Below are positions 6,921-25,474 of a stretch of 32,000 nt of DNA, piece after piece (position 1 is the stretch's first letter; each line of letters opens with the position of its first letter). The notes beneath the pieces were generated by a model. The model made no database searches, was not told the origin of the DNA, and saw nothing but the letters and a program-made list of their open reading frames with translations. The position numbers and the translations under genes are program-made. Origin of the DNA: Citreicoccus inhibens (GTDB taxonomy: Bacteria; Myxococcota; Myxococcia; Myxococcales; Myxococcaceae). The stretch covers positions 78,099 through 110,098 of the forward strand of contig NZ_JAHNZT010000030.1 of NCBI RefSeq assembly GCF_019039035.1, read 5' to 3'.

Positions 6921-8915
6921 TCACGCGAGGGTGGACTCGTAGCTGAGGGCCTGGATGCGGCGCTGGATCTCCTCCTGGACCCGCTGCCGCTCCTTCTCCA
7001 CCCGCGTCAGCTCCTGGCCAATGGCCTCCAGCCGGTCCTCCTGCTCGGTGAGCTTCGCCACGAAGCGGTCCGTCAGCTCGCGCTGCGAAGCCCCGCTGCG
7101 CAGCGACTCCAGGTTGGAGCGGATGCGCTCCTGGTCGCGGAACAGGTGGTTGCGCTCCTCGGTGAGCTGCTCCTGGGTGCGCGTCAGCTCCGCCCGCTGG
7201 CCACGCAGCGCCACCACGTCGCGCAGCGCCTGCGCCACGCCCTGGTCGATGAAGCGCGAGTCGAGGAAGAAGGCCACCTCGTCCAGGCCCACCTCGCCCA
7301 CGTGGTACTGGCGATGCCCCCGCGTGCGCTCGGCGACGGTGAGCTCCTGGGTGGTGCCCGGGGACAGCTCGCGGCGGAAACGCCAGAAGTCATCCGTGGT
7401 CTCCGCGGGCTCGGGCATGTCCTTGAGCTCCCAGCCCGTGCGCGGGTGCTCCACGAACAACACCTGCGCGCGCGTCGACTTGTTGCGCACCAGGTAGCGC
7501 GCGTGTCGCAGGTGGTAGAACTCCACCATCAACGTGCCCCGGTTCACCACGGCGCGGAACACCGGCCCATCCTCCGAGCGGTCCTCCACCGACACCACGC
7601 ACCCCAGCTCCACCGCGTACGGCACGAAGCGGCGGTCCCCGGGCTTCATCGTGTCGAGCATGGCCTCGCCCACGTACGTCTCCGCCTCCGTCACCGTCAC
7701 CGGGCCACCCTCCAACGTCAGGCCCGTGGTGTTGGTGAACTCGATGCACGCCATGGGGTTCTTCTCGCGCGTGGCGCGGTTGTAGAGCAGCACGCGCCGC
7801 CCCTCGAAGGGCCGCTGGAGGATGGGCACCAGCGCGCTCTGGTTGCGGTGCACCGTCACCGGCTGGTCCACGCGGTACTCGAACAGGTCGCCCACCTCCT
7901 GGGTGAGCGTGGTCACCCGCGCGGTGCCCAGCCGCGCCTCGCGCATCGACCGGCTCGCCTCCGGAGCCTCCGCCCGCGCCCGGGAGCGCTTGGGCATGGG
8001 CGCCGGCGCCGCGGCGGCGGGCCCGCCCATGGACCCGGGCAGGCCCCCATCCATGTCCAGCATGGACGCGGACTCCATCAGCGCCTCCTGCGGAATCACC
8101 GGCGCCGCGGCGGCCTCGGTCCGCACCTCCACCACTGGCCGCTGGAGGTAGCGCGGGTTGTAGAGGTCATGCACGAAGGACACGGGCAGGCCCGCGATGA
8201 GCGACAGCCGGACGTCCACCCAGTCCTCGTCCCCCGTGTTGTCCACCAGCGCCCACCCCTGGAGCAGCGGCGCGTGGCCCTCCTCCAGCAGGATGCGGTA
8301 GCTCGTCTTCCACACCGGGGACTCGAGCACGTAGCTCACGAACAGCTCGCGCTCACCCTCCCCCGACGTGAGGATGGACATCCGCTTGGTGTCCTTCTTG
8401 TACGAGGACAGCACCGTGGCCAGATAGAACTCGAGGTCCTTGCGCACCGCCTCGTCCAGGAACTCCAGCTCGGACAACTCCAGCACGTCGAACGTGCGCA
8501 GGCTCCCGCCCACCAGCAGCGTGAGGAAGGGGCGCGCGAGGCTCGTCTCTCCCGCGGCCACCGCCAGCGTGTCCAGCCCGACGATGGCGCCCTCTATCTT
8601 TCCGCCGCCCACGCGCGCCCGCACGCGCGCGCCCTTCACCTGCCCCAGGAGCGCCGTGAGGCTGCCGTCCTCGGGGATGCGGATGGTGGCCTCCGCCAGG
8701 AGCTGCTCCAGCGGCTTCGTCGAGTCATAGCTCACGGCCGACACCGCGCCGCCGGACAGGTCCAAGACGGTCAGCGACTTGAGGACGTCGTTCATGTCGC
8801 GGGCCTTGAAGTCGAGCAGCAAGGGCTCGCTGCCGCTCACCCGCCCCCGACGTTCGAAGTAGCCCACACCGTGCTTGTAGAGGACGACGCGGCGGATGGT
8901 CAGTGCAGGGGCCAT
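6921..8915 (-). CDS. DUF4139-family protein (MuiA-like) with C-terminal coiled coil
   Basis: Central signature SPVWKTSYRILL...ALVDNTGDEDWVDVRLSLIAG is typical of DUF4139. About 90 aa at the C-terminus form heptad-rich coiled coil. GGAGG lies 10 nt upstream of the ATG at 8915. Confidence 0.85.
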   Translation of the reverse strand: MAPALTIRRVVLYKHGVGYFERRGRVSGSEPLLLDFKARDMNDVLKSLTVLDLSGGAVSAVSYDSTKPLEQLLAEATIRIPEDGSLTALLGQVKGARVRARVGGGKIEGAIVGLDTLAVAAGETSLARPFLTLLVGGSLRTFDVLELSELEFLDEAVRKDLEFYLATVLSSYKKDTKRMSILTSGEGERELFVSYVLESPVWKTSYRILLEEGHAPLLQGWALVDNTGDEDWVDVRLSLIAGLPVSFVHDLYNPRYLQRPVVEVRTEAAAAPVIPQEALMESASMLDMDGGLPGSMGGPAAAAPAPMPKRSRARAEAPEASRSMREARLGTARVTTLTQEVGDLFEYRVDQPVTVHRNQSALVPILQRPFEGRRVLLYNRATREKNPMACIEFTNTTGLTLEGGPVTVTEAETYVGEAMLDTMKPGDRRFVPYAVELGCVVSVEDRSEDGPVFRAVVNRGTLMVEFYHLRHARYLVRNKSTRAQVLFVEHPRTGWELKDMPEPAETTDDFWRFRRELSPGTTQELTVAERTRGHRQYHVGEVGLDEVAFFLDSRFIDQGVAQALRDVVALRGQRAELTRTQEQLTEERNHLFRDQERIRSNLESLRSGASQRELTDRFVAKLTEQEDRLEAIGQELTRVEKERQRVQEEIQRRIQALSYESTLA

Positions 8916-9440: not shown

Positions 9441-9878
9441 CTACTGCGCGACGGAGAGCTTCACCTCGATGTTGCCCGCCGTGGCGCGCGAGTACGGGCA
9501 CACCGCGTGCGCCGCGTGCATGAGCTGGGTGGCCTCCTCCAGGGGGATGCCCGGCAGGATGCCCTTGAGCTCCACCGCGAGCCCGAAGCCGCCGTCCGGC
9601 GTCTTGCCCAGCGTGGCCGAGGCCGTGATGCCCGCGTCCGCGCCCAGGCGCTTGCCGGCCTTGCCCGCCACCAGCCGCAGCGCGCTCTCGAAGCACGCCG
9701 AGTAGCCCGCCGCGAAGAGCTGCTCGGGGTTCGTCACCGCGCCGCCCTTGCCACCCAGCTCCTTGGGCATGGCGAGCGGCAGGTCGAGGACGCCGTCGGA
9801 CGAGCGGACGTGGCCGTCTCGACCTCCGTGCGTGGTGGCGGTGGCGGTGTACAGCGGGGTGATGGGGGTGGGAGCCAT
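9441..9878 (-). CDS. ohr: Organic hydroperoxide resistance protein (OsmC/Ohr family peroxiredoxin)
   Basis: 145 aa with both catalytic Cys contexts, AAGYSACFESA and HAVCPYSRAT. GAGGAG SD upstream of the ATG at 9878. Confidence 0.95.
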   Translation of the reverse strand: MAPTPITPLYTATATTHGGRDGHVRSSDGVLDLPLAMPKELGGKGGAVTNPEQLFAAGYSACFESALRLVAGKAGKRLGADAGITASATLGKTPDGGFGLAVELKGILPGIPLEEATQLMHAAHAVCPYSRATAGNIEVKLSVAQ

Positions 9879-9904: not shown

Positions 9905-10339
9905 TTACTTCGAGAGCACTTCGAACAAGCGACGCATGTCCCGGCGCAGCCGGGTGACCTCTTCCAAAGACATCCCCAGGCGGCAGGACATCGCCTCGGG
10001 CACGGACGCGGCCTTGCGCTTCAGGGCGCGCCCCGACGTCGTCAGCGACACGCGCACCGAGCGCGCGTCCTCGGTGGACCGCTCGCGCCGCACCCACCCC
10101 TGGGTCTCCAGCCGCTTGAGCAGCGGCGTCAGCGTCCCCGAATCCAGGAACAGCCGCTCCCCCAGCACCTTCACCGACACCCCGTCCTCCTCCCACAGCA
10201 CCAGCATCACCAGGTACTGCGGATAGGTCAGCCCCAGCTTCTCCAGGAGCGGCGCGTAGGCCTGCACCATCGCGCGCGCCGCCGCATAGAGCGGAAAGCA
10301 GAGCTGGCGGTCCAGCCGGAGCGAGTCATCCGTCGACAT
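9905..10339 (-). CDS. ohrR: MarR-family organic hydroperoxide sensor/repressor OhrR (2-Cys type)
   Basis: Sensing Cys in RQLCFPLYAA, and wHTH LTYPQYLVMLVLWEEDGVSVKVLGERLFLDSGTLTPLLKRLETQGWV. A second Cys lies near the C-terminus (AMSCRLG). ATG at 10339 (the ORF-track start at 10345 is TTG). The gene sits 26 nt upstream of ohr on the same strand. Confidence 0.9.
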   Translation of the reverse strand: MSTDDSLRLDRQLCFPLYAAARAMVQAYAPLLEKLGLTYPQYLVMLVLWEEDGVSVKVLGERLFLDSGTLTPLLKRLETQGWVRRERSTEDARSVRVSLTTSGRALKRKAASVPEAMSCRLGMSLEEVTRLRRDMRRLFEVLSK

Positions 10340-10353
10340 GGCCAATACCTAGT

Positions 10354-10370
10354 GCGCAATTAAATTGTGC
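10354..10370. promoter_or_regulatory. Candidate OhrR operator (AT-rich inverted repeat)
   Basis: GCGCAATT-A-AATTGTGC has a perfect CAATT-N-AATTG core, resembling known OhrR boxes. The octamer TGCGCAAT recurs 16 nt downstream (10353-10360 and 10369-10376). The site lies 15 nt upstream of the ohrR ATG, in the only AT-rich patch of the region. Confidence 0.6.
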
Positions 10371-10478
10371 GCAATCAATTTTGGGACTGGACCGTTCGGT
10401 TCTGGACGTTCACCGGGGAAAAGGCGCGTGGTAGAGGTCGCCCCGCTCCGGAGCCGCCGGAGGAGAACCGAGGACGTG

Positions 10479-11261
10479 ATGCTGAGGACGGTCACCGCCA
10501 CCCGCTATGTGACGCCGCTGCGCGAAGGGGGCTCGCTGCCCGCCATCGTGGAAGCGGACGACGCGGGCTTGTACGTCGTGAAGTTCCGGGGCGCCGGCCA
10601 GGGGGCCAAGGCCCTCATCGCCGAGCTGCTGTCGGGCGAGCTGGCGCGCGCCATGGGGCTGCGCATCCCGGAGCTCGTCTTCCTGGAGCTGGACCCGGCC
10701 CTGGGGCGCAACGAGCCGGACGGCGAGATTCGCGAGCTGCTCAAGGCCAGCGCGGGGCTCAACCTGGCCCTGGACTATCTGCCGGGCTCGCTGACGTTCG
10801 ACCCGGTGGCGGACCGCGCGCCCGAGGCCGCGCTCGCGTCCACCATCGTCGCCTTCGATGCGTACGTCACCAACGTGGACCGCACGCCGAAGAACCCCAA
10901 CCTCCTGACGTGGCACCGGGACCTGTGGCTCATCGACCACGGCGCCTCGCTGTATTTCCACCACGCGTGGGAGGGCTGGGAGGAGCGCAGCCAGAGCCGC
11001 TTCGCGCCCATCCGCGACCACGTGCTGCTGCCCTGGGCGCGCGCGCTGCCAGAAGTGGGCGCCGTGCTGCGCGAGCGGCTGACGCGGAACGTGGTGGAGG
11101 CGGCCGTGGCCGCCATTCCGGAGACCTGGCTGGGCACCGAGCCCTGCTTCGACAGCCGGGATGCCCACCGCGCGGCCTATGTCACGTGGTTCATGAAGCG
11201 GCTGGACGCGGCACCCGCGTTTCTCGAGGAGGCGGCGCGTGCCCACACCCAGCTCGTTTGA
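10479..11261 (+). CDS. HipA-like (HipA_2 type) serine/threonine kinase-fold protein
   Basis: 260 aa. Candidate ATP-binding Lys in YVVKFRGAGQG. Catalytic loop TNVDRTPKNPNLL (D134, K138, N139; the GAC codon for D134 is at 10878-10880). Mg-binding LWLIDHGAS (D153). GAGGA lies about 5 nt upstream of the ATG at 10479. Confidence 0.85.
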   Translation: MLRTVTATRYVTPLREGGSLPAIVEADDAGLYVVKFRGAGQGAKALIAELLSGELARAMGLRIPELVFLELDPALGRNEPDGEIRELLKASAGLNLALDYLPGSLTFDPVADRAPEAALASTIVAFDAYVTNVDRTPKNPNLLTWHRDLWLIDHGASLYFHHAWEGWEERSQSRFAPIRDHVLLPWARALPEVGAVLRERLTRNVVEAAVAAIPETWLGTEPCFDSRDAHRAAYVTWFMKRLDAAPAFLEEAARAHTQLV

Positions 11262-11637
11262 CTACGCCATCATCCGCGTGGTGCCTCGCGTGGAGCGCGA
11301 GGAGTTCATCAACGCGGGCGTCGTCCTCTTCTGCGTCAACCACCGCTACCTGGGGGCGCGCACGGCGCTGGACGAGGACCGGCTGCGGGCCCTGGCCCCG
11401 GACGCGGACGTGGAGGCCATCCGAGGCCACCTGGAGAGCTTCCTGCGGGTGTCCACCGGGGGGCGGAACGCGGGCCCCATTGGGCAGCTCCCGCAGAAGG
11501 AGCGCTGGCACTGGCTGGTGGCCCCGCGCAGCACCATCATCCAGACCGGGCCCGTGCACGCCGGCTTGTGTGAGACGCCCGACAAGGCCCTGGAGCACCT
11601 GCTGGACCGCGTGGTCCGCGTGAAGCGCCCCGCCTGA
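11239..11637 (+). CDS. DUF3037 domain protein
   Basis: 132 aa. N-terminal FDYAIIRVVPRVEREEFINAGVVLFC matches the DUF3037 signature. The GTG at 11239 overlaps the kinase 3' end by 23 nt, which suggests translational coupling. Confidence 0.85.
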   Translation: MPTPSSFDYAIIRVVPRVEREEFINAGVVLFCVNHRYLGARTALDEDRLRALAPDADVEAIRGHLESFLRVSTGGRNAGPIGQLPQKERWHWLVAPRSTIIQTGPVHAGLCETPDKALEHLLDRVVRVKRPA

Positions 11638-12686: not shown

Positions 12687-13436
12687 TCAGCCCAGCTCGC
12701 GCTCCACCTCTGCCCATGCGTCGAGAATCTCACGCGTGCGCCGCTCGGCGAGCGCGTGGAACTCGGGGGCCAGGTGCGCCACCTTGTCCGGGTGGTACTG
12801 CGCGATGAGCGCCCGGAAGGCGCGACGGGCCTCGTCCGCGGAGGTGCCTCGCGCGATGCCCAGCACCGTCCACGGGTCGACCTTCCTGGGCTCGGGGGCA
12901 GGAGGCGCGGCGCGTGGGCGAGGGCGAGGAGGGGGCGTGTCCTCGAGGTCCTCCGCCTCGGGCGCGCGCGGGGCGCGGGGCGCGGGCTCCGGGCGTCGCG
13001 CCCCCGGGCGACGGGCCGGGTCGGGTGGAGGAACGCGAGGTGAGAGGCGACTGAGGGCCTCTTGGATGAACCAGAGGTCCTCGGCGGGCGGGCCGTGCTT
13101 GCGCACCACCAGGCGGGGGCGGCCGTCCTGAAGCAGCAGGTAGCCGGTGGACGCCGCGTAGGCCGCCTTCTTGTCGTTCGGGTACAGCCGCTCTCCCAGG
13201 TCGCCCAGCGGATCCCTCCACATGCCGTCCACGCCGCCCTCGTCCGCCACGAGCACCTGGGACAGCACCTCGCCGAAGACGTCCTCGAGCGCGGCGAAGG
13301 GCTCGCGCAGCTCGGGCGAGCGCTGGGTGGGGCCATGGCGCACGCCCGTCACGAGCAGCAGCCCGCGCGTCGCATCCACCCGCCCGAAGAGCTTCTCGCG
13401 CACCTGCTTGTCGGAAAAGAAGAGGACGGACTGCAC
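12687..13436 (-). CDS. J-domain (DnaJ-like) protein with C-terminal J domain, Pro-rich linker and uncharacterised N-terminal domain
   Basis: The C-terminus DPWTVLGIARGTSADEARRAFRALIAQYHPDKV contains the HPD motif. The GTG start at 13436 is supported by a sharp GC3 switch: codons upstream to 13592 are rich in A/T at position 3, and codons downstream are almost all G/C. The rest of ORF 12687..14906 is antisense to the M1 peptidase gene. Confidence 0.8.
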   Translation of the reverse strand: MQSVLFFSDKQVREKLFGRVDATRGLLLVTGVRHGPTQRSPELREPFAALEDVFGEVLSQVLVADEGGVDGMWRDPLGDLGERLYPNDKKAAYAASTGYLLLQDGRPRLVVRKHGPPAEDLWFIQEALSRLSPRVPPPDPARRPGARRPEPAPRAPRAPEAEDLEDTPPPRPRPRAAPPAPEPRKVDPWTVLGIARGTSADEARRAFRALIAQYHPDKVAHLAPEFHALAERRTREILDAWAEVERELG

Positions 13437-21596: not shown

Positions 21597-24500
21597 CTAC
21601 TCAAAGACAACGACGGTCTGCACCCAACTTCCCGGGTTCCTCCCGAGAAACTCCATCCGCTCGCGCTTCACGGCGACCGAGGGAGACGCTCCCTCGCGCA
21701 CGCGGCGGCGCACGGCCTCGAAGAACGCACCGGCCTCGGCGTCTGGAATGTCCGACGGCGACGCGATGACGGCGCGCGCGCCCGCCTCCAGGAACGCGAC
21801 CGGCAAGCTCCACGGCTCATGCAGATACGGCGCGGTCTCGGCGGCCCGGCACGACGCCAGGATGACCACCGGGGCGCGCGACAAGTGCTGGCGGCGCACC
21901 TCGCCCGCGGTCAGCGCGTAGCGGCCATCCGCCTGCGCGGACAGCACGATGAGCGACGCATCCGAGATGCCCAGGTTCACCAGCCCGTGCGCGTGGATGT
22001 CGATTTCATCCGCGCTCGGCATCTCGGCCAGGACGCGCTCCGGCGTCGCGGCGGCGCCCGTCAGGTCCACGCGGGGCGCGGTGGGCTCGGTGCCCGGCAG
22101 CCACGCGGACAGCCGCGGCAGCCCCAGCGCGGCGGGCGCGTTCACGTCACTGACCACCAGCCGTCTCGGCGCGCCCGAGGCCGCCACCGCGGGCTTCGAG
22201 TCCCCACGCTGATAGCTCCACGCGAAGTCGGGAGGCAGCAACCCCGCCCGCCCATGCAAGGGATAGCGGGCAAAGACAGACACGTGCTCGCAGGGGCGCA
22301 GCGCCTCCAGCACCGGCGCGGACACCAGCGAGGCGACGTCGAACGCGGGCGCGCCGCGGGTGGTGAGCGTGCCCACGGCCTCGCCCTTCGCGCCGCGCGC
22401 GGCCACCAGCATGCGCTCCTCGGCGATCTCCACGCCCAGCAGACAGCGCGTGGGCGCCGCGACGCCAGACTCACGGGCGAACCAGTCGAGCGCCCCCGCG
22501 AAGTCCCCCGCGCGACCGGCCTCCAGGATGAGCAGGGAGTAGCTCGCGGCCCGCGCCTTCTGCGCCCCCGTGTCCTCGCGCGGCAGCTTCTCCGCCGCCG
22601 CGATGAGGTCCTCCAACTGCCGCCGCCCCGCGACGCGGTCGTGCTCCAGCTCGGCGCGCGCGATGGCGTGGTCGACCATCAACAGCAGCCCGGGCCGCTT
22701 GCCGAGCCCCGGCTGCATACGAGCGGACGCCGCGAGCGCGCGCACCGCCTCCAGGTCTCCCGGCCGGGGCGCGACGCGCGACAGGTCCGCGAGGACGAGC
22801 GGGCTCAGGGCGGAGCGCGGCGACCCACACTCCGGCACCGCGCCCAGCTCGGTCCGCGCGGCGTCGAAGCGCAACTCGGAGGCGTCCAGCATCGCGAGCG
22901 TCTCGTGCAGGAAGACCTGGGCGGCGCAGACATCCGGCTGGCGCAGCGCGGACTCCCGCAGGTAGGCGCGCGTGAGCGCGAACGCGTCCCGGAAGCGGGC
23001 AATCTGCCCCAGGTGCTGGAGGAACTGCGTCTCCTGCTCGGGGTCGTTCGAGGCGCGCGCCCGCTCCAGTCCGCGCAGCGCGTGCTCGCGGGCCTCCACC
23101 AGCCGGTGCTGCGACGTGTAGAGGTACGTGAGCACCGACTCCAGCTCGCCGCAGCGCGCGTCCAGCTTGCGCAGCTCACAGGCGGGCAGGGCCTTCAGCA
23201 GCAGCGCCTCCGCGCTCGCCATCTCGCCAGCCGTCAGCCTGGCCTGCGCGCGCTGCAGCTCCGCGTTGACCTGGAACCATGGGTCGCCCACCGCGTCCGC
23301 CGCCCGAGCGTAGTCGTCCAGCGCCGCGGGCAGCCGCCCCAGCAGCGCGAGCGCGCCCAGCAGGATGTCCGAGTCCCCCGAGGCCCGCAGCGCCCGCACG
23401 AACCCATCCGCGCCCGCCATGTCGAAGGCGCCCGCCAGCACCTGGGCGAACGACGTCGCCAGCGGACCTCGCCGCGCGAAGTCCCGCTTCTGCGTCCGCT
23501 CGATGTAGCGGGCCAGCACGTCGCCGCCGTAGTGCGCGTCCAGCTCGCGCGCCTCGGGGAGCAGCGCGCGCACGCGCTCGGCGGTGGGCGCGGTCCAAGC
23601 CGCCAGATACAGGTACTTGCGCGCGAGCGCCGGGGCCTCGCGCACCAGCGTCGCCGGCAGGGGCGTGCCATCCGCCACCAGCGTCTTGTTCGCGGACCAG
23701 GCCTGGTTCCAGTGGTCCTGCCGCGCCTTCGTCTGGCGCCGCACCGCCTCGGCGCGCTCGCGCGCCTCCTGGCTCCAACCCGGCTCGTTCAGCGCGGCCA
23801 CCTGCTCGAAGCCCTCGGCCGCGAGCAGGTCCAGGCCCAGCTCGCGCAACACGAGGCTGCGGTTCCACATCGCCGCCGCGTGCCGGGGCTCCTTCGCGAG
23901 CACACGCTCCAGCAGGACGAGGGCGTCCTCCAGGTCCCCGCGTTGCAGCGCCACCACGGCCCGGTCGCTGTCCACATCCGGAGAAGCAGGCGCGCGCTTC
24001 AAGTCCTCGCGCGCCTGATCCACTTCGCCGCGAAGCAGGTGTCCCGTGCCCAGCCCGTGCAGGTCCCCCGCCGCCTCCAGCTTCGCCAGCGCCTGGAGCG
24101 GCACCAGCTCGCGCGGACGCTCGTCGCCCGAGCGCTTCACGCCGTAGGGCCGATACCCGCTCGCCCCGGACCAGCTCAGCCGAGCCTCCAACGAGCGCGT
24201 GGGCGCCAGGGCCAGCGCCTCCGGCCCCACCACCTGCTCCGAGCCATCCGTCGAGGGCGAGCGGAACAGCGCCACCGTCAGCGCGGCCGTCAACGAACCG
24301 CTCAGCGCCACCGCCGCCACCCAGCGGCGACGCCCGCTCCACGCCGGACGGAAGGCGCGCGAGGGCTTCGCCTCGCGGGGAGCGTGAGGGGCAGGCGCCG
24401 CGGGGACGTCCGCGTCGCGCGGCGGCGACACCACGCGCAGCGGACGGACCTCCTCCTCGGCGTGGATTGCCTCGCCCGCGGACTTGAGCTCGAGGATGAC

Positions 24501-24644
24501 GTCCAGCGCATCCATGCAGCGCTCGCAAGTGACCAGGTGCTCACGGAAGGACGCGGCCTCCTCCGGCGACAGCTCGTCATCCGCGAACAGGTGAACCTGG
24601 TCGTGGATGTCCAGCATGTCGAGGTCACGCTCGGAGTCGCTCAT
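21597..24644 (-). CDS. Transmembrane zinc anti-sigma factor (zf-HC2) fused to periplasmic TPR repeats and a C-terminal CHAT (caspase-like) protease domain
   Basis: 1015 aa. ZAS motif H36-x3-C40-x2-C43 (FREHLVTCERC, nt 24516-24539). One TM helix, WVAAVALSGSLTAALTVALF (residues 108-127, nt 24264-24323), preceded by RRR. A long Ala/Leu/Arg TPR-like region follows. C-terminal CHAT dyad contexts are EIDIHAHGLV (H886, nt 21987-21989) and PVVILASCRAAE (C932, nt 21849-21851). The ATG is 2 nt after the sigma gene stop. Confidence 0.9.
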   Translation of the reverse strand: MSDSERDLDMLDIHDQVHLFADDELSPEEAASFREHLVTCERCMDALDVILELKSAGEAIHAEEEVRPLRVVSPPRDADVPAAPAPHAPREAKPSRAFRPAWSGRRRWVAAVALSGSLTAALTVALFRSPSTDGSEQVVGPEALALAPTRSLEARLSWSGASGYRPYGVKRSGDERPRELVPLQALAKLEAAGDLHGLGTGHLLRGEVDQAREDLKRAPASPDVDSDRAVVALQRGDLEDALVLLERVLAKEPRHAAAMWNRSLVLRELGLDLLAAEGFEQVAALNEPGWSQEARERAEAVRRQTKARQDHWNQAWSANKTLVADGTPLPATLVREAPALARKYLYLAAWTAPTAERVRALLPEARELDAHYGGDVLARYIERTQKRDFARRGPLATSFAQVLAGAFDMAGADGFVRALRASGDSDILLGALALLGRLPAALDDYARAADAVGDPWFQVNAELQRAQARLTAGEMASAEALLLKALPACELRKLDARCGELESVLTYLYTSQHRLVEAREHALRGLERARASNDPEQETQFLQHLGQIARFRDAFALTRAYLRESALRQPDVCAAQVFLHETLAMLDASELRFDAARTELGAVPECGSPRSALSPLVLADLSRVAPRPGDLEAVRALAASARMQPGLGKRPGLLLMVDHAIARAELEHDRVAGRRQLEDLIAAAEKLPREDTGAQKARAASYSLLILEAGRAGDFAGALDWFARESGVAAPTRCLLGVEIAEERMLVAARGAKGEAVGTLTTRGAPAFDVASLVSAPVLEALRPCEHVSVFARYPLHGRAGLLPPDFAWSYQRGDSKPAVAASGAPRRLVVSDVNAPAALGLPRLSAWLPGTEPTAPRVDLTGAAATPERVLAEMPSADEIDIHAHGLVNLGISDASLIVLSAQADGRYALTAGEVRRQHLSRAPVVILASCRAAETAPYLHEPWSLPVAFLEAGARAVIASPSDIPDAEAGAFFEAVRRRVREGASPSVAVKRERMEFLGRNPGSWVQTVVVFE

Positions 24645-24646
24645 GG

Positions 24647-25294
24647 CTACTCGGTCTCCGGAGGCTGGGGGGTCAACAGCGCGTGGAGCTTCTGCCGCGC
24701 CCGGGCGAGGCGCGTACCCACCGTGTTCTTGTTGAGGCCCAGGTGGTCGGCAATCTCGATGTACGAGCGCCCTTCGATTTCCTTCATCCGGAACACCGTA
24801 CGGAACTCCTCAGGAATCTGCTCCAGCGCCTCGCGAACTTCCGCGGTGCCGAACTTCGCCCACAAGGGCTCGTCCTCGGGCAGCGGCGCGGCGACCGTTT
24901 CCTGCACTTCTTCCGCGGACACCCCGGCCCGGCGCTCGCGCAGCTTCAGGCGGTGTCGATCGAAGAAGAGGTTGCGCTGGACGCGCAGCAGCCAGGCGCG
25001 CGCGTCCCCCTGCGTCTTCAGCTGCTCGCGGTGGCGCCAGGCGCGCTCGTAGGTGTCCTGGATGAGGTCGCCCACATCCGAGGCATTGCCGGCGAGCTGC
25101 ATTCCCCGCGTGCGCAAGAGCGTGTCGTGCTGGCGAATGAAGGCGTCGAACCAGCGGCGGTCCTGCACTTCCAATGAAGGGGGCTCGCTCTCCACGCGGG
25201 ACACAGGCTGGCTGGTCGGTTCGGGAGCAGTCAAGCGCCGCGAGCCCCGGACCGCCGGGAGCCGCCCCATCCACTCCAGCGCGAAAGTATCCAT
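24647..25294 (-). CDS. ECF (group IV) sigma-70 family RNA polymerase sigma factor
   Basis: Region 2 is DVGDLIQDTYERAWRH and RAWLLRVQRNLFFDRHR. Region 4.2 is FRMKEIEGRSYIEIADHLGLNKNTVGTRLARARQKL. ATG at 25294 with GAGGA about 10 nt upstream. There is an N-terminal extension of about 40 aa. Confidence 0.9.
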   Translation of the reverse strand: MDTFALEWMGRLPAVRGSRRLTAPEPTSQPVSRVESEPPSLEVQDRRWFDAFIRQHDTLLRTRGMQLAGNASDVGDLIQDTYERAWRHREQLKTQGDARAWLLRVQRNLFFDRHRLKLRERRAGVSAEEVQETVAAPLPEDEPLWAKFGTAEVREALEQIPEEFRTVFRMKEIEGRSYIEIADHLGLNKNTVGTRLARARQKLHALLTPQPPETE

Positions 25295-25474
25295 GGCGTC
25301 CCCGTCCTCAGGCCCTTGCGGAGAGTCCACCGCACTGCTCCGCTCCGCGCAGCCGTACCCACAACCCCGACGCGTGCATGTCTTCAGTCCCTCCCTGAAC
25401 AAGCGGTCCGGAAGGGAAACGAAGCGTGTGGCCAATCTTCCCAGCGGGGATATTCGCGCCATTTCCTCCCGCGC

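Follow-up and report, generated by a model that had tools for sequence, protein, structure and literature searches.

A HipA_2-family kinase gene overlapping a short DUF3037 gene in Citreicoccus inhibens: a putative kinase/inhibitor pair related to HipAD/DS-6 and PDC-M66

What does a HipA-like kinase do when the gene that overlaps its own encodes a small protein of the DUF3037 family and not a helix-turn-helix (HTH) antitoxin? The question is raised by two genes in a 32,000-nucleotide stretch of the Citreicoccus inhibens genome (contig NZ_JAHNZT010000030.1, positions 78,099 to 110,098; referred to here as the window, to which all coordinates below apply). An earlier note on this DNA, made from its letters, had described the pair as an uncharacterised kinase-based module. 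Drawing on analogy with experimentally tested relatives, we favour with moderate confidence the reading that the pair is a growth-arresting kinase which would be kept inactive by a directly binding, translationally coupled DUF3037 protein, and which would be freed by some trigger.

Gene anatomy, the kinase core and the DUF3037 partner

On the + strand, the kinase open reading frame (ORF) runs from an ATG at 10479 to a TGA at 11259-11261 (10479..11261) and encodes 260 amino acids; the DUF3037 ORF, of 132 amino acids, runs from a GTG at 11239 to 11637 on the same strand (11239..11637). The two share exactly 23 nt (11239-11261). Both ORFs and their overlap read exactly where the earlier note had placed them, and the order that it described, i.e., kinase first and a small non-HTH partner second, is borne out at the locus. 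The GTG at 11239 is the earliest start available downstream of an in-frame stop, and any later start would cost the DUF3037 protein its conserved N-terminal FDYAIIRVVP motif. The GC content at third codon positions (GC3) is 0.93 for the kinase gene and 0.95 for the DUF3037 gene, similar to the adjacent genes. These values, together with the Pfam matches of both proteins, rule out that the two are chance ORFs in a genome of 72 % GC.

The kinase matches Pfam HipA_2 (PF20613) over residues 13-223 (E=2e-19, 70.2 bits against a cut-off of 27 bits) and PADLOC PDC-M66A over the full length of the model (E=4e-26, a better match than the 6e-15 of DS-6A, the kinase of the DS-6 system discussed below). 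It consists of the core kinase domain without the N-subdomains of HipA, and its clade is peripheral in HipA_2, scoring 70 bits versus 258 for DS-6A. Residue conservation was assessed in an alignment of 34 homologues and in a larger one that adds distant relatives and spans the classes with short and with long DUF3037 partners. Even with the distant relatives included, K35, E49, D134, R135, N141 and D153-H154 are invariant. D134, R135 and N141 lie in the catalytic loop D134-R-T-P-K-N139-P-N141 (10878..10901, + strand), which as a whole is invariant among the 34 homologues, and D153-H154 in LIDHG (10935..10940, + strand), where D153 is the putative Mg-binding Asp; judged by eye, we take its motif and spacing to resemble those of HipA D332. 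The earlier note had read NVDRTPKN as an apparently intact HipA-type catalytic loop and IDHG as the site of a Mg-binding Asp, and had proposed, as a refutation, that catalytic residues might prove missing on proper alignment. Both motifs are present and invariant in the 34 homologues, as NVD134RTPKN and LID153HG; K35, D134, N141 and D153 are all kept, and D134 corresponds to D139 of DS-6A, a residue needed for defence. On these residues the kinase looks catalytically intact.

Further towards the N-terminus, R15, E16, G17, G18, S19, P21 and A22 are invariant among the 34 homologues, and G17 and P21 remain so over both the short and the long classes. By analogy with the Hip core kinases (PMC8262856), the LREGGSLPA stretch (residues 14-22; 10518..10544, + strand), with its invariant S19, is likely the Gly-rich nucleotide-binding loop, and S19 is a candidate autophosphorylation site. 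An AlphaFold2 (AF2) model of the kinase has a mean predicted local distance difference test score (pLDDT) of 74 and a predicted template modelling score (pTM) of 0.79, with low pLDDT at residues 13-19. Searched against the PDB with Foldseek, the model ranks CtkA (3akk) on top, although as a weak match (E=3e-3, prob 0.99, TM 0.47-0.51), followed by Shewanella HipA (4pu5/4pu3) and later by PI3K/Vps34 and eukaryotic-type kinases. For canonical HipA, phmmer and profile searches of the PDB sequences gave chance matches only. A residue-by-residue alignment to canonical HipA was dropped after phmmer, profile searches and hhalign had all failed; because sequence profiles miss E. coli HipA, what links the kinase to HipA is its place in Pfam and clan, the order of the Foldseek matches and the spacing of the motifs. 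As a point of nomenclature, many NCBI records call the kinase 'aminotransferase class I and II' (P0001, P0011, P0012, P0014, P0052 and P0053 in our set, and others) and newer ones 'HipA family kinase'; the aminotransferase naming is a propagated misannotation.

The partner is a single-domain protein that matches Pfam DUF3037 (PF11236) over model positions 1-118 of 118 (E=1.6e-45, 154.6 bits), and PADLOC PDC-M66B over positions 3-129 of 281 only (E=2e-9). It carries the family-wide signature Y9, R13, P16, E22, N25 and G27, within which Y9, P16 and G27 are the only residues invariant family-wide when short and long partners are aligned. Its AF2 model (pLDDT 81) comprises a sheet of three strands and four helices, after which come a short strand and one last helix. 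Foldseek found no significant match of this model to a solved fold (best E-value 1.1), and DUF3037 has no sequence relative among the solved structures. Two candidate folds were rejected. A relation to HipS, i.e., to N-subdomain-1 of HipA, had seemed conceivable from the similar β-β-β-helices-β order, but hhalign returned 0.05 % and no HipS or HipA chain appeared in Foldseek; the Foldseek matches to the HORMA proteins Rev7 and ATG13/ATG101 have E > 1 and probability < 0.1, and are noise. Among the nearest 150 DUF3037 clusters (representatives at 50 % identity) the median length is 132 amino acids, and 8 exceed 200. Two close relatives, P0292 (337 amino acids) and P0276 (288 amino acids), have unrelated C-terminal extensions, that of P0292 being pyridoxamine-phosphate-oxidase-like by eye; the extensions may represent genuine fusions or read-through in gene calling.

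Obligatory pairing, the conserved junction and known relatives

A scan with the DUF3037 alignment, over one genome per species, returned 581 relatives, and the best 80 loci were examined, from Myxococcota, Acidobacteriota, Chloroflexota, Gemmatimonadota, Abditibacteriota and other phyla. A same-strand kinase gene lies directly upstream of DUF3037 in 79 of these 80 loci, the remaining one being interrupted by a contig end. In the reciprocal test, DUF3037 was found downstream of the kinase in 70/70 metagenome loci with enough sequence. The pair is thus adjacent in all 149 testable loci (79 anchored on DUF3037 and 70 on the kinase), from at least five phyla, and there are no orphan kinases among them. 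The co-occurrence that the earlier note had put forward is, in these loci, essentially obligatory. No third gene is conserved with the pair, and the flanks vary among phyla.

The junction between the two genes is equally constant. It measures exactly –23 nt in 66 of the 70 metagenome loci; most genome loci have the same value, and it recurs in Bacteroides. Over 152 loci, DUF3037 starts with GTG in 110 and with ATG in 29, the sequence GGAGG stands just 5' of it in 142, and the kinase stop codon is TGA in 145. In the window, GAGGAGG (11226..11232, + strand) ends 6 nt ahead of the GTG, and this Shine-Dalgarno sequence is encoded by invariant Glu-Glu-Ala codons of the kinase. Because the internal Shine-Dalgarno sequence and the overlap (11239..11261, + strand) are conserved, translational coupling of DUF3037 to the kinase is plausible. 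Co-translation, which had been deduced from the overlap in the window, can be retained at that strength; the matched stoichiometry deduced along with it cannot, since an overlap does not demonstrate equal amounts.

Both PADLOC PDC-M66 models (PDLC04766 and PDLC04767) match the window proteins, and relatives of the pair have been studied as anti-phage systems. A HipA-like/DUF3037 pair located beside Retron-Sda1 protects E. coli from phage Bas51 without need of the retron; loss of its kinase ends the defence, and loss of its DUF3037 protein is toxic (PMC12548924). DS-6, renamed HipAD, was found independently in E. coli prophages; its defence is abolished by the kinase mutation D139A, and AlphaFold3 predicts a DS-6 A-B complex with an interface pTM (ipTM) of 0.76-0.79 (PMC13092281). 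Compared with the DS-6 sequences, taken from the supplement of PMC13092281, the window kinase shares 27 % identity with DS-6A (E=3e-11, hhalign 96.8 %), D134 lining up with D139, and the window DUF3037 protein shares 23 % with the N-terminal domain of DS-6B (E=7e-8, hhalign 84 %). The term 'uncharacterised' in the earlier note therefore has to be given up, because the pairing is that of PADLOC PDC-M66, a validated toxin/neutraliser-type anti-phage system (PMC12548924, PMC13092281). Taken as a whole, the interpretation in that note keeps its intact kinase, gene order, co-occurrence and, as plausible, coupling; it loses 'uncharacterised' and the matched stoichiometry.

The likeness to HipAD/DS-6 (WP_000389051 and WP_000210934; HipA and HipD in phage PhiR5_1) extends to gene organisation, since in both cases a kinase gene is followed by an overlapping DUF3037 gene without an HTH antitoxin, and to the kinase residues, which share the catalytic Asp (D139 = D134), K35, E49, N141 and D153-H154. 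The partners differ. DS-6B has 275 amino acids and an extra C-terminal DUF1829-like domain, predicted to bind DNA, which the window partner does not have. In the tested mobile class the partners are of ~270-275 amino acids and the genes overlap by 4 nt, whereas in the window class the partner, of 132 amino acids, is missing a C-terminal half of ~150 amino acids and the overlap is 23 nt. PDC-M66 is a computational candidate defined on two-domain partners, and DS-6B and the partner from P. syringae span the whole M66B model, unlike the window partner with its limited coverage. By these comparisons the window pair matches HipAD/DS-6 and PDC-M66 in all the anatomy compared, but lacks two features of the described systems, the two-domain partner and mobile carriage. 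The functional tests of the pairing come from HipAD/DS-6 and from the Retron-Sda1 neighbour, whereas the window class is known from sequence. The pair beside Retron-Sda1 is, like the window pair, a standalone module of kinase and DUF3037 with a similar N-terminal kinase motif; it differs in having an upstream HTH gene, an adjacent retron, and a DUF3037 C-terminal region that resembles a retron-associated DNA-binding protein.

Further comparison can be made with the hipJS, hipIN and hipBST modules (PMC8262856), which like the window pair combine core Hip kinases without N-subdomain-1 with a small non-HTH neutraliser. Their antitoxins are HipS-like, i.e., related to N-subdomain-1 of HipA, a similarity that the window DUF3037 protein does not show, and none of the ten Hip organisations in PMC8262856 includes DUF3037. 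It has been proposed that hipJS stems from hipIN via loss of the DNA-binding HIRAN domain of the antitoxin (Gerdes et al. 2021, PMC8262856); by analogy, the short and long DUF3037 partners parallel this proposed origin. The canonical HipA of E. coli K-12 HipBA and the window kinase belong to the same superfamily (Pfam clan CL0016) and have the D-x-x-x-K-N ... D pattern in common, and PF07804 and PF20613 are merged as one family in KINtaro. HipA, however, has 440 amino acids with N-subdomains and is encoded behind the HTH repressor HipB, whereas the window kinase has 260 amino acids, no HipB and no N-subdomains. The window pair is neither canonical HipBA nor a HipS-type module. We also observed that the family models have different centres: Pfam HipA_2 favours the mobile long-form kinases (258-265 bits versus 70 for the window kinase), Pfam DUF3037 favours the short-form partners (155 versus 80-85 bits), and PADLOC M66A favours the window kinase over DS-6A. 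Automated calls of the pair will for this reason be uneven between the short and long classes.

Distribution, neighbourhood and other features of the window

Searches of 50,697 phage genomes and 2.9 million viral contigs (IMG/VR) found nothing that matches the window class; DS-6A, by contrast, is found in 45 viral contigs and 3 phage genomes, one of them annotated HipA and HipD, and the long-form copy of P. syringae lies between IS91 elements on a conjugative plasmid. Both proteins of the short pair are 52-69 % identical over Myxococcota, Chloroflexota, Acidobacteriota, Bacteroidota and Actinomycetota; the orthologues in Bacteroides are WP_004305885 and WP_004305884. In four phyla the pair and its host flanks have equal GC3, over a range from 0.39 (Bacteroides) to 0.93 (the window). 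Because the composition of the pair follows that of each host, the conservation reflects long residence under strong purifying selection rather than recent transfer. From this comparison the window pair emerges as a distinct short-partner, non-mobile and slow-evolving class, which the earlier note had overlooked. In the literature searched, this widespread short class is not singled out, although the module itself is already known.

In Corallococcus and Myxococcus the pair occupies one shared slot, in the order Ohr/MarR, pair, EEP, PepN, and is about as diverged as its slot neighbours (75-82 % identity). Its neighbours in the window are ordinary: genes for NDH-2, an amidohydrolase, a LysR regulator, an MFS transporter, MarR/Ohr, an EEP-family enzyme, aminopeptidase N, an M13 peptidase, sensor kinases and an ECF sigma factor. 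The window holds no integrase, transposase, tRNA or phage genes, and no neighbours of defence-island type surround the pair. In the other phyla the flanks are mutually unrelated and mostly housekeeping. The locus L010 (BNCN01000008.1), titled Comamonas sp. KCTC 72670, has the Myxococcus-type order Ohr, MarR, kinase, DUF3037, EEP, PepN at 76-79 % identity; this assembly, probably of a Myxococcus, seems to carry a wrong label or contamination.

Three candidates for a further component or context were rejected. The MarR-family gene, the only HTH gene close by, is not a missing HTH antitoxin: it is divergent from the kinase gene, runs in the same direction as Ohr and has a putative OhrR-type operator, and it stands next to the pair in Corallococcus only, the adjacency being lost in Myxococcus and in all other phyla. 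The downstream EEP-family gene is not a third component, as it is linked to the pair in Myxococcaceae only, and insertions of 0.8-5.4 kb intervene in several species. This gap between DUF3037 and EEP is variable across Corallococcus and Myxococcus (L002 8400-13800; L003, L005, L008, L009, L012 and L016). Nor do the insertions form a defence hotspot: that of C. terminator contains a DUF2381 paralogue and two eukaryotic-like Ser/Thr kinases, others contain a matrixin-type metalloprotease or a small lipoprotein, and the PD-T4-6 matches are generic to the kinase domain.

Between the MarR start at 10345 and the kinase start at 10479 lies an imperfect palindrome, GTGCGCAATTAAATTGTGCGC, with a perfect CAATT-A-AATTG core (10352-10372). 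We take it to resemble the OhrR operator (B. subtilis TACAATTAAATTGTA). It stands just upstream of the MarR-family gene (9905-10345, – strand), which is followed by the OsmC/Ohr gene (9441-9875, – strand), and because of this placement the two genes are probably an OhrR-Ohr organic-peroxide unit. Co-regulation of the kinase operon with MarR is possible via the common 133-bp divergent region. Elsewhere in the window, a 664-amino-acid protein with a C-terminal coiled-coil-like stretch (6921-8915, – strand) is clearly coding (GC3 0.96), gave no Pfam or PADLOC match, and is kept at 71-86 % in part of the Myxococcus and Corallococcus loci. Between the EEP gene and aminopeptidase N, a long, spurious minus-strand ORF of 739 amino acids conceals the gene for a small protein (12687-13301, – strand) whose C-terminus carries a J-domain (DnaJ, E=1e-6). 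At 21597-25474 (– strand), the gene for an ECF sigma factor precedes one for a 1070-amino-acid protein in which a zf-HC2 anti-sigma motif and TPR repeats are combined with a CHAT protease-like domain at the C-terminus, an unusual anti-sigma architecture.

Proposed mechanism, rival readings and significance

In the mechanism that we propose, the pair would be a self-contained two-gene kinase/inhibitor module of the HipA-like plus DUF3037 kind, as in PDC-M66 and HipAD/DS-6. The 260-amino-acid protein would be a HipA-type Ser/Thr kinase, active although pared down to the core domain, whose free form would arrest growth as in the tested relatives, and the 132-amino-acid DUF3037 protein would bind the kinase and neutralise it. 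Ribosomes ending the kinase gene would meet the GGAGG and the GTG, so that the inhibitor would be made only along with the kinase and from the same mRNA. A signal, possibly phage infection or stress, would reduce the level or the binding of DUF3037, and the freed kinase would phosphorylate an essential target. Because the window partner is without the C-terminal predicted DNA-binding domain, it probably does not autoregulate the operon. The sequences show the anatomy, the homology, the intact catalytic residues, the obligatory pairing, the coupling junction and the non-mobile context; that the kinase is active and toxic, that binding neutralises it, and what triggers it and what it targets, we infer from distant relatives.

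Several lines of evidence are consistent with this mechanism: the homology to DS-6A and DS-6B with the essential Asp aligned, the CtkA/HipA-like fold and the published phenotypes of relatives, as well as the 149/149 pairing, the conserved –23 nt junction with its GGAGG and GTG, and the lack of a conserved third gene. Others weigh against it. The functionally tested systems are only 23-27 % identical to the window pair, whose partner has no counterpart to half of DS-6B, and hhalign of the 34-homologue alignment against E. coli HipA found nothing, leaving canonical HipA out of profile reach. Moreover, the short pair keeps its 52-69 % identity across phyla with a composition matched to each host, is syntenic in Myxococcaceae while diverging at roughly the rate of housekeeping neighbours, lies outside any defence island and was absent from the phage genomes and viral contigs searched. 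Toxin-antitoxin and defence genes seldom have so conserved, syntenic and non-mobile a profile, so that the toxicity and the defence role of the relatives may not extend to the window pair.

The same evidence bears on what such a module would be for. It may serve bona fide anti-phage abortive infection, in which phage would release the kinase and the infected cell would be shut down, as with HipAD in E. coli. We hold this only tentatively: the pair is homologous to DS-6/HipAD and matched by both PDC-M66 models, defence has been validated in two relatives, and a self-contained module in unrelated contexts across phyla is what transferable modules look like, but the phage-protection data come from a class other than the short pair, which has no phage or viral-contig copies (versus 45 viral loci and 3 phage genomes for DS-6A) and no defence-island neighbours; moreover, it is near-core and syntenic in Myxococcaceae, its proteins evolve very slowly and its composition is fully ameliorated. 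The pair may instead be a domesticated housekeeping regulator, a growth or stress switch that would act on a conserved host target, e.g., the translation apparatus, with the mobile forms as offshoots or parallel recruits. Identity of 52-69 % from Myxococcota, Chloroflexota and Acidobacteriota to Bacteroidota and Actinomycetota, GC3 equal to that of host flanks in four phyla, syntenic and neighbour-like divergence in Myxococcus and Corallococcus, the dominance of the short form in the nearest 150 DUF3037 clusters and a partner without the DNA-binding half would all suit such a role. This, too, is a tentative reading, drawn from sequence and context, for there is no conserved functional neighbour to indicate a pathway, the flanks differ by phylum and so imply past horizontal transfer, and every tested relative is a defence toxin. 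Homology points to defence and lifestyle to a cellular role, and we give the two readings the same modest weight. In a further reading, held just as tentatively, the short pair might be no defence system but an ancient, vertically maintained growth- or stress-control kinase with a dedicated inhibitor, common to bacteria of soil and gut from at least five phyla, from which the mobile HipAD/PDC-M66 forms would have been derived by adding a DNA-binding domain to the partner.

A different relationship between the two proteins is also conceivable, in which DUF3037 would not inhibit the kinase but would be phosphorylated by it as its physiological substrate, within a partner-switching arrangement. 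The pairing is obligatory, and the short clade of DUF3037 has an invariant, surface-loop-like P96-R-S98-T99..Q102-T103 motif in a region of lower model confidence. These Ser/Thr positions, however, are not kept in long-form partners, DS-6B and the P. syringae protein having K-E-S there, and the toxicity of DUF3037 deletion in the relative adjacent to Retron-Sda1 fits an inhibitor. The loop being confined to the short clade, the idea of a conserved phospho-acceptor in DUF3037 was rejected, and because the candidate loop is not conserved in long-form partners we regard a kinase-substrate pair as improbable.

Studies of this pairing have so far concerned only its mobile versions with two-domain partners, which are recent entries in the anti-phage catalogue (2025-26). 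The window presents a minimal, much more conserved, chromosomal and widespread version, found from Myxococcota to Bacteroides. We caution against calling every pair of HipA_2 and DUF3037 'defence' on model matches alone. If the window genes do encode a toxin/inhibitor pair, they would be the smallest natural system in which to study how DUF3037 inhibits a Hip kinase, what the kinase targets, and how it is released without a DNA-binding autoregulator. If their role is not defence, they would represent the same module in a conserved cellular role, and would bear on the relationship between immune modules and housekeeping regulators.

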